Below are positions 533 through 15,970 of a DNA stretch of 35,898 nucleotides, piece by piece. The stretch covers positions 1 through 35,898 of the forward strand of contig CBDVAW010000001.1 of assembly GCA_965372095.1 (NCBI GenBank). Direction: 5' to 3'. The notes below the pieces were generated by a model. It worked only from the letters and a program-made list of their open reading frames with translations. It ran no database searches and was not told the DNA's origin. The DNA comes from an uncultured bacterium (GTDB lineage: Bacteria > Patescibacteriota > Minisyncoccia > Minisyncoccales > CBDVAW01). Every line of letters begins with the position of its first letter. Within the stretch, counting starts at the first letter, position 1. The position numbers were made by a program, and so were the translations under genes.

Positions 533-3211
533 ATGCAGCAAAACAAATTGTTAAAAACCATAATTTTAATTTGCGGGGTGTTTATTCTGTGTTTTGCGAC
601 AAGTATTTATATCTTTGCTTGGACGGGGCCTACGGAAGATCCGCCCGGAGGTGATGTCTCTTCAATTGTAAAGCTGGCGCCCGACACAATTCAAAGCGAT
701 GCTTCTTCAACTCCTTCAATTTGGATAAACAAAACAGCAATAGGTAATCTGTTAGATTTACAATCGGGAGGAGCAAGCCAATTAATAGCTGGCTATGATG
801 GGAATGTTATAATAGAATCAGGAAAATTAAGCTTAAAAGAAGCTATCGCTCCCGGCGCTTCGGCGGGCTATGGCAGACTTTATGTCGCAAGCGCTGATAG
901 CAAGCTTTACTTTAAAGATGACTCCGGTATTGAATATGATCTAACCGCTCCCGGAGGAGCTTCTCAACTAACAGACTTATCCAATGTTACGATTGCCGCG
1001 CCGGCCGATAACGAGGTTTTGACTTACGAATTGTCCACCGGTCTGTGGAAGAATGCGCCCGGCGGAGCCGGAGGAGGAATAGGCGGTAGCGGAGCATCAA
1101 CTCAAATTGCCTTTTTCAGCGATTCCACAACTCTTGGTTCGGACAGCGATCTTTATTGGGATAATGTAAACAAAAGATTGGGTGTTGGAATATCCACTCC
1201 TAACGCAAGCATAGAAACAAGAGGTGGTGCTCATGGGATAATGGCTTACGGCACTACAGCGGGAGGATTTTTTTCAGATTTTGACAGTTACGGCTATGCT
1301 TATCTTGGAGTAGGTGATTATGGTATTAAAGCTTACAGTACCGGCACAACTCCTGCAGGGTTTTTCCAAAACAATAATAGCGGCACTTACACGCGCGTAG
1401 CTGATGATGACAGGGGGATTGACGCTTCGGCTACAGGAATAGCCGTGGGAGGCTGGGGAGATATTGCCGGAGGATATTTTCAAGATAGAAATGCTTCCGG
1501 TTATGCTTATGCGGGATACGGCGATTATGGAATCCAAGGTTATGGAAATTCTGCAGGAGGGTATTTTGACGAGATAGATACCGTAGGAACCTATGCTTAT
1601 TTAGCATTTAGTGATTACGGTGTTTATGCAAAGGGCAATACCTCGGGTGGCTATTTTAAAGACAATAATAGTTCCGGTTATGCTTACGTGGGGTACGGGG
1701 ATTACGGAGTTAAGGCTTATGGGGATACGATGGGAGGATATTTTAAAGATTTAACCAGCGGTGTTTATAGCTATCTTGGGCATGGCGACTATGGACTATA
1801 TACTCCTCTTGGTAATGTGTATGTCGGTGGGGATTTGCGTGTCGGGACCACTACGGCGGTTGGCGCGCTTCATCTTACAGGTGGAGCTTTAGCGGTGGAT
1901 GGAAATACCGGAACCGCGGGTCAAGTTTTAACTTCGCAAGGCGCGACAGCCACTCCAAACTGGGCAGACGCGGGAGGAGGCGGAGACGGCCAGGCAATTT
2001 ATGATGCCATAGTAGATGTTGCCGGATCGGGTGATTATACGACGGTTCAAGATGCTGTTAATGCTGGTGAGAAAAGTATTTTTATTAAAGATGGCGCATA
2101 TAGTATTGGAGCTGTTTTAAATATCACAACAGCAGGGACACACCTTTATGGGGAGAGTGTAAACGGTGTTCAGATAGGAATGCCCAACGTACACAGTCTT
2201 ACTATTAATGTGTCCGCTTCTGATGTTATTTTTGAAAATATTACTCTATACAAAGCATGGAATACTTCTTTGGTAACATGGGCTGGGAGTGATGGAAGTA
2301 TTATAAATTGTTCATTTGAGAATAGGTATGCAACCGCAGGCTCCTATGCATGGCCCGTTCTGTCAGGAACCTTTAATGAGATATATGTAGAGAATTCAAA
2401 ATTTAGCAGTACCCAAGGGTATGTAGTAGGGACAGGGGGTAGTAACAACGTGTTTACAGGGAACACTTTTGAGACAACAGGGTGGGGAGGTGAATTACTC
2501 TCTCTCGGACAAAATAGTCGAGTTATTGGAAATTATTTCCTTGCAATTAACGCCGCTGGTAATAGTGAATACGGAGCTAACTTGGGAAATAATAGTGTCG
2601 TAACAGGTAATATCTTTCAAGGAGCTTTGGGGATGGCTAGTAATTATGCTGCTATAGCAGCCGATAATAGCGTTATTACGGATAATATGATTACAGGTTT
2701 TTATGATGGTATATGGAGTGGTTCTGGAACAAATGGATCGGTAGTTAATAATAATGTCATACGAAATGTTGCTCGCGATGGCATAAGAGTGGACGGGGGT
2801 TGCAATACGGGTTACTCAGGAATAGAAGTTGTCGGAAATTCTATTAATAATTCTGGGCAAGACGGTATTGTAGCTTCTCCCGCGTGTAACTTAACAATAT
2901 CCGACAATAACATAAAAGGATCGGGCAGATATGGTATACGCGGAGGTTATGATTTTAGGAGAAGTGTCATTTCTAATAACAATATACGTGAAAATATAGG
3001 AGGAGGAATTGTTATGGATTCAGGGGAATATTTTGAGGATTCAATTGTTACAAATAATGTAATCTATAATAATGGAGGTTATGCTATTGATGCAGGTCGG
3101 ATTTATTACAGTGTTTTTATGGGTAATGTTATACGAAATAATACAAACAACCAAATATACTATCCCAACGGTACTCTTAATTCCGAGATACAACATAACG
3201 TTATTTATTAA
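533..3211 (+). CDS. large anchored surface protein: N-terminal TM plus 'AWTGPTEDPPGG' module, Gly/Tyr-rich repeats, and a C-terminal right-handed parallel beta-helix (pectate-lyase/tailspike-like) domain
   Basis: 892-aa ORF. N-terminal hydrophobic helix followed by FAWTGPTEDPPGGDV. About 30-aa repeats GGYF.D..SGYAY.GYGDYG..AYG. Motif GTAGQVLTSQGATATPNWADAGGGG. The C-terminal third has PbH1-like repeats (NNNVIRNVARDGIRVDG, GNSINNSGQDGIVAS, DNNIKGSGRYGIRGG, NNNIRENIGGGIVMDS, NNVIYNNGGYAIDAG). Confidence 0.8.
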   Translation: MQQNKLLKTIILICGVFILCFATSIYIFAWTGPTEDPPGGDVSSIVKLAPDTIQSDASSTPSIWINKTAIGNLLDLQSGGASQLIAGYDGNVIIESGKLSLKEAIAPGASAGYGRLYVASADSKLYFKDDSGIEYDLTAPGGASQLTDLSNVTIAAPADNEVLTYELSTGLWKNAPGGAGGGIGGSGASTQIAFFSDSTTLGSDSDLYWDNVNKRLGVGISTPNASIETRGGAHGIMAYGTTAGGFFSDFDSYGYAYLGVGDYGIKAYSTGTTPAGFFQNNNSGTYTRVADDDRGIDASATGIAVGGWGDIAGGYFQDRNASGYAYAGYGDYGIQGYGNSAGGYFDEIDTVGTYAYLAFSDYGVYAKGNTSGGYFKDNNSSGYAYVGYGDYGVKAYGDTMGGYFKDLTSGVYSYLGHGDYGLYTPLGNVYVGGDLRVGTTTAVGALHLTGGALAVDGNTGTAGQVLTSQGATATPNWADAGGGGDGQAIYDAIVDVAGSGDYTTVQDAVNAGEKSIFIKDGAYSIGAVLNITTAGTHLYGESVNGVQIGMPNVHSLTINVSASDVIFENITLYKAWNTSLVTWAGSDGSIINCSFENRYATAGSYAWPVLSGTFNEIYVENSKFSSTQGYVVGTGGSNNVFTGNTFETTGWGGELLSLGQNSRVIGNYFLAINAAGNSEYGANLGNNSVVTGNIFQGALGMASNYAAIAADNSVITDNMITGFYDGIWSGSGTNGSVVNNNVIRNVARDGIRVDGGCNTGYSGIEVVGNSINNSGQDGIVASPACNLTISDNNIKGSGRYGIRGGYDFRRSVISNNNIRENIGGGIVMDSGEYFEDSIVTNNVIYNNGGYAIDAGRIYYSVFMGNVIRNNTNNQIYYPNGTLNSEIQHNVIY
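1205..1855 (+). repeat. in-frame degenerate tandem repeats (about 29-32 aa, 6-8 units) rich in Gly/Tyr
   Basis: Repeated peptide pattern GG(Y/F)F(K/Q/S)D...SGYAY(A/V/L)G(Y/V/H)GDYG(I/V/L)(K/Q/Y)(A/G)YG, seen at least 6 times in the translation. Confidence 0.7.
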
Positions 3212-3245
3212 AAGATAGATTTAATATTAAATAAAAAATAAAGAT

Positions 3246-3587
3246 ATGCTAAAAGAAAATATAAAATCAATTTGCGAACAAATGTGGTTTTGGATACCTG
3301 TATTAATAGTCTTGATAATAATGGGAAATTTGATGATCTATCTTATTTTTGACAGTCAAATTATAAAATTAGAGAATAAAATAAGTGATTTGGAAACAAT
3401 AGTTAACCAGTCTTCACAAACTCAAGGAATAGAAGGACAGATAGAGTTGGAAGAAGATATAATTGTATCTGAAGAGGATATTATGAATACGGAGAAAATT
3501 GAACAAGAGACCATTATTTTAGAGGCAGAAACTTTAATGCCTGAAGGAGAAGGAATGCTTTCTCCTCGCGAAACACAGGGACGTTAA
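3246..3587 (+). CDS. small single-pass membrane protein with an acidic, coiled-coil-like tail
   Basis: 113-aa ORF. TM helix WFWIPVLIVLIIMGNLMIYLIF followed by a Glu/Ile-rich tail. Lies 36 bp upstream of the next surface gene. No family recognised. Confidence 0.5.
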   Translation: MLKENIKSICEQMWFWIPVLIVLIIMGNLMIYLIFDSQIIKLENKISDLETIVNQSSQTQGIEGQIELEEDIIVSEEDIMNTEKIEQETIILEAETLMPEGEGMLSPRETQGR

Positions 3588-15791: not shown

Positions 15792-15823
15792 TCTTGAATA
15801 TTTTAAAATTAAATAATTTTAAT

Positions 15824-15970
15824 CCTACAACCACTTTTGATTTTTTTGATAACAAATTTACCACTATTGAATTGGTCGTTGTTGATAGTAACGGGCGTAC
15901 TGATTCTGAAACGCATAACATTGCCATTAGAGCAGCTAAACCTCAATGGAGGGAAGTATTCGCCATTTGA
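15824..15970 (+). pseudogene. orphan 3' fragment of a divergent PKD-like paralog, directly after the complete gene
   Basis: NPTTTFDFFDNKFTTIELVVVDSNGRTDSETHNIAIRAAKPQWREVFAI* aligns with ..TGTYFAFGPEYNQIRLTVIDDEGRSNYIIHTISGKHSVPKWREIPPFI*, the end of both large genes. Confidence 0.5.

Follow-up and report, generated by a model that had tools for sequence, protein, structure and literature searches.

The means by which ultrasmall Candidate Phyla Radiation (CPR) bacteria recognise and attach to their hosts are largely unknown, and in cultivated Saccharibacteria type IV pili with large accessory pilins are the main candidates. Type IV pili are the host-attachment organelle of cultivated CPR, and PilX2 of TM7x, which has a non-canonical signal, is a candidate for the host-binding tip (PMC11623550). 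Here we analyse a stretch of 35.9 kb (the window) within scaffold_378 (37,269 bp; ENA assembly ERZ23499000), beginning at contig position 1372, and in particular the island of about 15 kb at positions 533-15970. A preliminary description had likened this island to the gene-conversion systems pilE/pilS and vls. The locus does look cassette-like by eye but is better explained as family expansion, conversion and decay together with an orphan target of a diversity-generating retroelement (DGR). The reading that we favour, with a probability of roughly 0.6, is that of a set of adhesin-like genes with a pilus link, which has expanded and in part decayed and is accompanied by toxin-antitoxin modules and the orphan DGR target. 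The expansion would be lineage-specific and would involve a triad conserved in Patescibacteria, at a variable site upstream of rpmF-nusB-rnc. The first triad member would be a small protein of the membrane whose C-terminus carries (L/F)TAP repeats (the small LTAP family), the second a Sec-secreted protein with a highly conserved N-terminal module (N-module) and an unrelated C-terminal tip (the AWTEPT family), and the third a protein of GWAWSENIGWIS beta-repeats that has Ig/PKD-like domains and a conserved LPxWxEIPPF end (the GWIS family).

The island can be compared with several described systems. With Neisseria pilE/pilS it shares a type IV pilus connection, several related copies in one region and signs of non-reciprocal sequence transfer, which would depend on general homologous recombination. 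Unlike in that system, the island proteins are not pilins, the truncated copies are 3'-deleted (the opposite polarity to pilS and vls cassettes), the fragments lack high-identity segments common to intact genes, the converted tracts lie in conserved sequence, and the G-rich motif is intragenic, the island apparently having no upstream G-quadruplex (G4) or small RNA element. Borrelia vlsE/vls likewise has a family of surface proteins and paralogous sequence close by, but the island has no in-frame cassette array 90%+ identical to the central region of an expressed gene, no flanking short direct repeats and no telomere-proximal expression site. The pilus proteins PilY1/PilC, MshQ (DUF2341) and Saccharibacteria PilX1/PilX2 are alike in their beta-rich accessory domains and in that the triad, in relatives, directly follows minor pilins; DUF2341 is a domain of MshQ, and one AWTEPT homolog (at locus L108; L-numbers label the loci of relatives, L001 being the source contig) carries it. 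No sequence relationship to PilY1, PilX or MshQ is detectable, however, and none in fold is confident; the triad also differs from non-pilin pilus adhesins and large minor pilins in its Sec-type signals, its tandem paralogs with swapped tips and its detachment from the operon here. Tail-fibre and Rhs/CDI (contact-dependent inhibition) loci also pair a conserved N-module, as a homology handle, with unrelated tips, keep truncated leftovers in the locus and present the same tip in other protein contexts; in contrast to them, the island has no toxin/immunity pairs, no orphan tips that keep a piece of the handle and no phage context, and each paralog is complete with its own signal peptide. The likeness to DGRs concerns the gene at 11359-12288 only, which is homologous to verified targets in two relatives and has a C-terminal hypervariable patch, but has no reverse transcriptase, Avd or template repeat near it.

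The mechanism is ordinary, but as far as our searches show the literature has no account of the pilus-linked triad or of the modularity of its tips, and we found no description there of the AWTEPT, GWIS or small LTAP families. None of the three has a Pfam or NCBIfam model or a relative of solved structure, and searches of Pfam, NCBIfam, PHROGs and the PDB sequences gave no family for the island proteins beyond beta-helix, AbiEii, DUF6922 and NYN. The data suggest that, within the pilus operons of Patescibacteria, three large unannotated families make up a module that recurs. The near-identical N-modules and unrelated tips that its tandem paralogs can have make concrete host-specificity candidates and offer a testable idea of diversification.

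The triad and its type IV pilus context

To check the anatomy of the window we used six-frame open reading frames (ORFs), self-blastn, repeat finding and a tblastn search with each island protein as query, the evidence base being one consensus scaffold from a short-read metagenome assembly. Every gene of the island is on the + strand, as part of a strand bias that extends over the whole window, and GC within the island runs from 0.31 to 0.50. The core genes of the window and all homologs belong to Patescibacteria/Parcubacteria, in agreement with the CPR-like cell proposed earlier. The exact island proteins occur on the source scaffold alone. No close strain relatives were found, the best non-self homologs being 51% and 60% identical, and a metagenome scan anchored on NusB reached genus- or family-level relatives only.

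By tblastn, the window contains four members of the AWTEPT family (533-3211, 5716-6381, 7716-8207 and 8425-9123) and five of the GWIS family, which is named here for its GWAWSENIGWIS motif (3624-5375, 9302-9811, 11216-11275, 12558-15791 and 15821-15958); the small third family is represented at 5422-5700 and 8179-8394 (81% amino acid identity). Nine members in two main families plus a small third thus bear out the earlier count of at least nine ORFs or fragments in two or three families. The N-terminal anchor or signal attributed to the full-length members is likewise probable, as hydrophobic N-termini are visible in the translations of all of these.

The AWTEPT family comprises 4034 clusters at 50% identity. 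Its N-module, a conserved stretch of about 85-110 residues after the signal peptide, has the consensus AWTEPTxxPPxGNVxAPLNVGxxGQSKAGGLILNTGGA..GNVGIGT. Matches between members are mostly confined to residues ~5-110 and the C-terminal tips are unrelated among themselves, so that the conserved modules joined to divergent tips of the preliminary description are indeed seen. AWTEPT protein 1 (5716-6381, 221 aa) and AWTEPT protein 3 (8425-9123, 232 aa) are intact, the latter with a tip of its own that recurs as the C-terminal end of another protein, of 502 aa, elsewhere (P0296). The member at 533-3211 (892 aa, secreted) has an AWTGPT-type N-module, Gly-rich repeats and a C-terminal right-handed beta-helix (Pfam Beta_helix 2.6e-16, NosD 9.3e-09), and its N-terminus aligns to the AWTEPT genes by tblastn. 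A 480-aa protein of a relative (L007 8543-9985) has by eye the same FAWTG.TEDPPGG N-terminus and, like 533-3211, is encoded directly upstream of a GWIS gene. The remaining member, copy 2 (7716-8207), is a pseudogene with an N-module identical to that of copy 1. Its different tip is cut after ~45 codons and matches internal parts of intact homologs of 366-563 aa, in which it is the start of a longer domain. Immediately before AWTEPT protein 1 lies copy 1 of the small LTAP membrane protein (5422-5700, 92 aa, three RFTAP repeats). Small transmembrane proteins ending in ..LTAP.. or ..LSAP.. also precede AWTEPT genes in L002, L004, L108 and L110, and a variant ending in ..KLTP.. does so in L024.

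GWIS homologs number more than 2259, are essentially all from Patescibacteria and in many cases have PKD/Ig Pfam domains. The consensus architecture is ~400 aa long, with a nearly invariant LPxWxEIxPF at the extreme C-terminus. This end is present in the window at 5346-5375 and 15762-15791, and the GWIS protein of L108 has an extra C-terminal hydrophobic segment instead; the motif may serve as a signal for sorting or anchoring. GWIS protein 1 (3624-5375, 583 aa) consists of a signal peptide, GWAWSENIGWIS beta-repeats, Ig/PKD-like domains and a C-terminal PKWREIPPFI, and its AlphaFold2 model (mean predicted local distance difference test score, pLDDT, 83) is all-beta with Ig-like beta-sandwiches. 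GWIS protein 2 (12558-15791, ~1077 aa) has a signal peptide, three tandem units of 215 aa, GWIS repeats and an Ig-like C-terminus, the last being 75% identical at the amino acid level to that of GWIS protein 1. A 1128-aa ORF can be read from a GTG at 12405, but as it traverses a hairpin the ATG at 12558 (MNMNNKKIKL...) is the likely true start. The hairpin (12417-12534; 34-nt arms, GTCATTGCGAGCGAAGCGA-type repeats; dG -65.6 kcal/mol, z -5.5) is intergenic, between the DGR-type gene and GWIS gene 2, and the exact 17-nt core of its arms occurs in no other fetched locus. Of the 'GWIS + PKD' family named earlier, the family stands, with PKD Pfam domains in many homologs and Ig-like folds in the model, whereas the GWIS proteins of the window themselves have no PKD Pfam match.

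The context of the triad was assessed on contigs encoding homologs and on species-representative genomes scanned with a 43-residue N-module alignment, their flanks being annotated by BLAST and motifs. Of 23 independent related loci, 12 have their AWTEPT genes within a type IV pilus operon (L002, L004, L011, L015 (partial PilB), L016, L018, L019, L020, L021, L024, L109 and L110), and we estimate that a random gene in a genome of ~1 Mb would be equally near pilus genes a few percent of the time. The operon order is PilB-(response regulator)-PilT-PilC-pilin(s)-PilD-(minor pilins)-small LTAP-AWTEPT (1 to 5 copies)-GWIS/PKD, with the GWIS/PKD gene usually after the AWTEPT gene(s). Arrays of 2-5 intact AWTEPT paralogs occur in L002, L110, L024 and L026. 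Given the position of the triad inside pilus operons elsewhere, the AWTEPT and GWIS proteins are most likely pilus-associated or co-expressed secreted adhesins for host attachment. The host-attachment surface proposed in the preliminary description is in keeping with this, the proteins being by prediction secreted and adhesin-like and, through synteny in relatives, linked to type IV pili. Amid the AWTEPT paralogs of two of these operons is a gene for an S26 signal peptidase I (L002 9413-9973, L110 8162-8722), which has no counterpart in the window; it suggests a dedicated processing enzyme for the ..LA-WTEP.. signal.

The same chromosomal site can be followed in relatives. At L108 the order is dnaE(-), RNase HII, small LTAP, a 727-aa AWTEPT+DUF2341 protein, a 405-aa GWIS protein and then rpmF-nusB, that is, exactly one triad. 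In most relatives found through NusB (78-83% identity) a minus-strand gene of ~1056 aa, taken as dnaE because Pfam so annotates its counterpart in L108, lies within the 1 kb upstream of rpmF and the island is missing, and a single GWIS gene stands before rpmF in L030, L065 and L075. L007 keeps the order [AWTGxT beta-helix protein][GWIS] of 533-5375, its GWIS homolog being 46% identical to that of 3624-5375. With one triad at this site in L108 and none or one GWIS gene in others, the window appears as an expansion, at a variable site, of the pilus-operon module. In L038 a PilB, PilC, prepilin and minor pilin cluster (13417-19003) lies ~2 kb downstream of rpmF-nusB-rnc-rpsP, which brings pilus genes near this chromosomal neighbourhood in at least one lineage. 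Small membrane proteins of similar layout (85-109 aa) precede the module in the window (1-330), in L007 (6609-6929) and in L024 (71-328), and judged from layout may be a fourth conserved module member.

Several observations weigh against reading these genes as pilus-linked adhesins. Within 10 kb, roughly half of the related loci have no pilus genes, and neither the 36-kb window (by Pfam) nor the 37-kb source contig has a type IV pilus gene, so that the pilus link is drawn here by homology and synteny in other genomes. The AWTEPT and GWIS proteins have ordinary Sec-type rather than prepilin signals: Pfam gave no match to N_methyl, the class III prepilin signal, and the AWTEPT N-termini read as Sec-type, ending in ..LA before WTEP. 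The AWTEPT monomer model is poor (pLDDT 63), as expected of a protein that may be fibrous or oligomeric, and a fold search with the GWIS model gave weak matches (TM-score <= 0.2) to Ig-repeat adhesins and a beta-propeller sensor; because of these two results the label 'adhesin' draws on architecture and context. The G+C content at third codon positions (GC3) is 0.37-0.46 in the AWTEPT genes at 5716-9123, the GWIS genes and the DGR-target gene (0.32 in the member at 533-3211), compared with 0.22-0.39 (most <=0.35) in the housekeeping genes to 35785 and 0.27-0.32 in the toxin-antitoxin genes, and candidate causes of the raised family GC3 are foreign origin, biased gene conversion and codon bias. 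Finally, a single consensus scaffold leaves room for recombination at high frequency.

Identical tracts, a fusion joint and decay

A tract of 313 bp (5704-6016) recurs with zero mismatches at 7704-8016, confirming a duplication previously given as 311 bp. It takes in 12 nt upstream and, in AWTEPT copies 1 and 2, the N-module's first 100 codons. Past it come 3 mismatches in the next 31 bp, and homology stops at 6047; that all 3 mismatches of 344 aligned bases should fall in the last 31 has a chance probability of ~(31/344)^3 = 7e-4. The two copies start exactly 2000 bp apart (5704 and 7704), which is probably coincidence and a possible assembly oddity. Coinciding with the right end of the tract are the sole G4-capable motifs of the window (6029-6053 and 8029-8052), which lie in coding sequence and encode a Gly linker at the N-module/tip boundary of copies 1 and 2; they are absent from 13 related loci and none is upstream of a gene. 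We regard the place of the motif at the tract edge as a coincidence of domain boundaries, though one worth keeping as a lead. The second tract is the 268-bp block at 13196-13463, repeated exactly at 13841-14108 as had been reported. It straddles unit boundaries of the 645-bp tandem repeat within 12558-15791, the three in-frame units of which are otherwise 82-87% identical, and the chance of a 268-bp identical run at 86% identity is ~1e-17. Since the middle of unit 2 is unlike both neighbours, the block is a conversion or unequal-crossover tract and not a simple hybrid. One tract thus falls in the conserved N-module and the other in a tandem repeat, and neither in a variable region.

The other rearrangements are older or deletional. 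GWIS protein 2 is the patchwork paralog of the preliminary description: over 14614-14733 it is nearer to 9302-9811 (80-88% vs 52-69%) and at 14734 it switches its nearest paralog, being nearer to 3624-5375 from there on. At the truncation/fusion junction, which we place at 8176-8179, AWTEPT copy 2 abuts a small LTAP gene, homology to the latter starting from 8179 (= 5491), and copy 2 reads out of frame into this remnant. The small gene (copy 2, 8179-8394; 88% nucleotide identity to 5491-5702) is 5'-truncated, lacking its first 23 codons including the membrane helix. A truncated GWIS gene (9302-9811, 169 aa) stops after the first repeats, is 79% identical at the amino acid level to residues 727-833 of the ORF from 12405 and has no GWIS C-terminal half downstream. 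Both 3'-truncated genes (7716-8207 and 9302-9811) still begin with a start codon and a signal peptide, and a simple deletion and a truncation account for them.

Two scraps complete the set. The one at 11216-11305 retains ~20 codons with a GWDGWIRLRDTNYK segment; 41 nt of it (11222-11262) match 9698-9738 at 85% identity, and blastx matches it to the GWDGWI region of GWIS homologs. The other (15821-15970), adjoining rpmF, comprises the last ~46 codons of a GWIS gene, ending in ..PQWREVFAI and a stop. Over 15821-15958 it is 35-37% identical (amino acids) to the in-window paralogs, with no blastn match, and 45-52% identical to GWIS C-termini elsewhere; being nearer to foreign GWIS ends than to the paralogs of the window, it fits the leftover of an older resident gene. 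Of the three 3' fragments suggested earlier these two are GWIS remnants, and 9157-9285 found no match: it has no similarity to anything in the window or among 398 family proteins and was dropped as a family fragment.

Related loci show the same pattern. L024 has three intact tandem AWTEPT genes with identical N-module runs of 154-240 bp and entirely different tips (one globular, one collagen-like and Cys-rich, another Cys-rich), and L026 has two AWTEPT genes with a 218-bp identical N-module run and differing tips; no such runs between AWTEPT paralogs were found in L002 and L110. Identical N-modules with unrelated tips imply that in L024 and L026 the N-module is sometimes homogenised or that tips were recently swapped onto it. 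The homologous recombination between paralogs proposed in the preliminary description is thus upheld by the identity tracts and mosaic GWIS genes: judging from these sequences, exchange between paralogs is real and recurrent. The N-module offers a natural homology handle, through which tips have probably been reshuffled between paralogs over evolutionary time, and the near-identical N-modules with unrelated tips in two other genomes make such recombination-driven shuffling plausible on that timescale.

The history that we propose for the island would run as follows. The triad members would have been duplicated, with older mosaicism arising between the GWIS paralogs and two recent conversion or unequal-crossover events leaving the 313-bp and 268-bp tracts. 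A deletion would have fused AWTEPT copy 2 to the small-gene remnant, one GWIS gene would have been truncated, and the 3' end of a displaced GWIS gene would have been left behind. Two AbiEii toxin-antitoxin modules would have been inserted, plus a NYN gene that is now dead. Ordinary homologous recombination and decay, as read from the sequence, would then explain the island structure.

Cassette switching, a retroelement target and other alternatives

In a programmed or high-frequency cassette system, the intact genes would be expression sites, the truncated copies and fragments silent donors, and RecA-dependent conversion would act within the population. The recent 313- and 268-bp identity tracts, the mosaic GWIS paralogs and the identical N-modules with different tips in L024 and L026 speak for such a system, and the sole G4-capable motifs, at the N-module/tip boundary (6029 and 8029), are loosely reminiscent of the pilE G4. 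The donors, however, are wanting. No promoterless, 5'-deleted array of silent copies exists in the window; there are two 3' scraps only, and neither has usable donor homology (41 nt at 85% in one; 35-37% amino acid identity and no blastn match in the other), so that, too short or too divergent, they give RecA-type conversion no homology handle. The truncated copies retain their 5' ends, and tblastn finds no second copy of any AWTEPT tip, and hence no silent tip, in the window. By self-comparison there is no vls-like contiguous cassette array, the only tandem array being the three 645-bp units in one gene. The identical tracts fall in conserved and not in variable sequence, and the G-rich motif, within coding sequence, encodes a Gly linker and is missing from the 13 related loci. 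Nor is there a site-specific inversion system: Pfam finds no recombinase, invertase or reverse transcriptase across the 36-kb window, as the preliminary description had also noted, and inverted repeats of >=40 nt are absent from the window, shorter ones being AT-rich chance matches except for the one local hairpin. As all copies are direct, crossovers between them would delete or duplicate sequence and not switch it. Nothing indicates a programmed expression-site/silent-cassette switch, and the pilE/pilS or vls analogy, which fails on donors without homology, on retained 5' ends and on absent silent tips, we regard as quite improbable. Slightly less so, though still unlikely, is that the duplication of the N-module, the fusion joint, the third tandem unit or any combination of these arose during assembly, from co-existing strain variants or mis-joined repeats. 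The 313- and 268-bp tracts exceed usual assembler k-mers and have two entry and exit paths each, so that copy order and number rest on a single metagenome scaffold; the 2000-bp spacing of the tract starts is oddly exact, the genes occur on one scaffold only, and the two repeat-sharing proteins are absent from Logan assembly sources. Yet the scaffold is without Ns (zero in the window), the flanks of each copy are distinct and biologically coherent, with a tip of their own, a deletion joint that falls inside genuine homology and, where the tract ends, 3 mismatches, and independent assemblies, those of L024 and L026, show the same pattern.

That the fibre-like genes are receptor-binding proteins of a degraded phage is the most improbable of the readings considered. 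Some AWTEPT homologs are annotated as Peptidase_S74 or 'tail fiber domain', 12558-15791 and the 269-aa gene upstream of the window have weak PHROG matches, and toxin-antitoxin modules are nearby, but relatives of the N-module are absent from 2.9 million viral contigs searched, Pfam finds no capsid, terminase, integrase or other phage gene in the window, and the pilus synteny in cellular genomes is consistent. Going beyond the expansion and decay that we favour, the N-module might be a dedicated docking and recombination handle. It would fasten exchangeable tips for receptor binding to the type IV pilus or the surface of the CPR cell and, being near-identical between tandem paralogs in the window, L024 and L026, would allow tips to be swapped, duplicated or lost at appreciable frequency in populations, as a Patescibacteria-specific, pilus-linked host-range system resembling tail fibres. 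The window would then be a snapshot in flux, with the Gly-linker/G4 motif marking a preferred breakpoint; we consider this extension rather doubtful.

A further route to surface variation is offered by the orphan DGR-type target gene (11359-12288), which encodes a 309-aa protein with a hypervariable patch before its C-terminal GFRLVVRP. Its homologs, some of them fused to N_methyl pilin heads, are 50-61% identical, and their sole hypervariable stretch comes just before the C-terminal GFR(V/L)VVRP. At L111/L112 and L113 (L111 10001-12830; L113 2998-6142) bAvd and a reverse transcriptase come after the homolog, the targets in L111 and L113 being 52-55% identical to 11359-12288. Template repeats (TRs) found in L111 and L113 have 8-16 mismatches against the variable region (VR) per 80 nt, all at TR adenines and 0 at non-A positions, and by this signature the elements are canonical DGRs. 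A scan of both strands of the window for a TR of 11359-12288 gave the self-match only, the same scan recovering the TRs of L111 and L113; tblastn of the Avd and reverse transcriptase of L111 and L113 against the window gave nothing better than E = 0.19, with no RVT Pfam match. The gene would be either an orphan or a remote target, with its DGR encoded elsewhere in the genome. Its being an active target in trans, and thereby part of surface variation, is compatible with the expansion-and-decay reading, though less likely than not. In its favour, two relatives pair the target with bAvd and a reverse transcriptase and have TR/VR mismatches at TR adenines only, and variation in the family is concentrated before GFRVVVRP. 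Against this, neither the window nor the source contig has an Avd, a reverse transcriptase or a TR, and the gene may be an orphan.

Toxin-antitoxin modules and neighbouring genes

Interspersed with the triad genes are two toxin-antitoxin pairs. Pair 1 (6660-7527) comprises a DUF6922-like antitoxin (6660-6923) and an AbiEii nucleotidyltransferase (6829/6907-7527; Pfam AbiEii 1.8e-11), and pair 2 (9872-10755) gives Pfam matches to DUF6922 (1.5e-18) and AbiEii (1.5e-12). They are 35% identical to each other at the amino acid level (tblastn), and both have the layout of AbiEii-type (type IV) modules, a toxin with a small upstream partner. AbiEii modules flank 11359-12288 and likewise the DGR of L113. 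Between pair 2 and the first GWIS scrap lies a NYN-domain pseudogene (10831-11115), of which the 3' half only remains, with an in-frame stop (Pfam NYN 4e-10, model positions 67-144/145). A further ORF of the island, between the beta-helix and GWIS genes (3246-3587), encodes a small membrane/coiled-coil protein of 113 aa with sub-threshold Pfam and NCBIfam matches only.

Upstream of the window, the source contig encodes a secreted protein of 269 aa (L001 206-1015), the C-terminal half of which matches two PHROG families (6e-09 and 5e-07), both of unknown function; at the island's left edge, this may be one more gene of the fibre or adhesin kind. The right part of the window (16054-35898) consists of housekeeping genes at a GC of ~0.34, among them rpmF, nusB, rnc, rpsP, trmD, def, rplJ/L, clpB, mraZ/W and a gene for a penicillin-binding protein. 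Rfam places four tRNAs in the window, all outside the island. Two ribosomal proteins are extended: S16 by a K/E/A-rich C-terminal extension made of three 54-bp tandem repeats (17936-18107), and L7/L12 (191 aa; 23357-23500) by a K/E-rich N-terminal extension with a short duplicated 27-mer.

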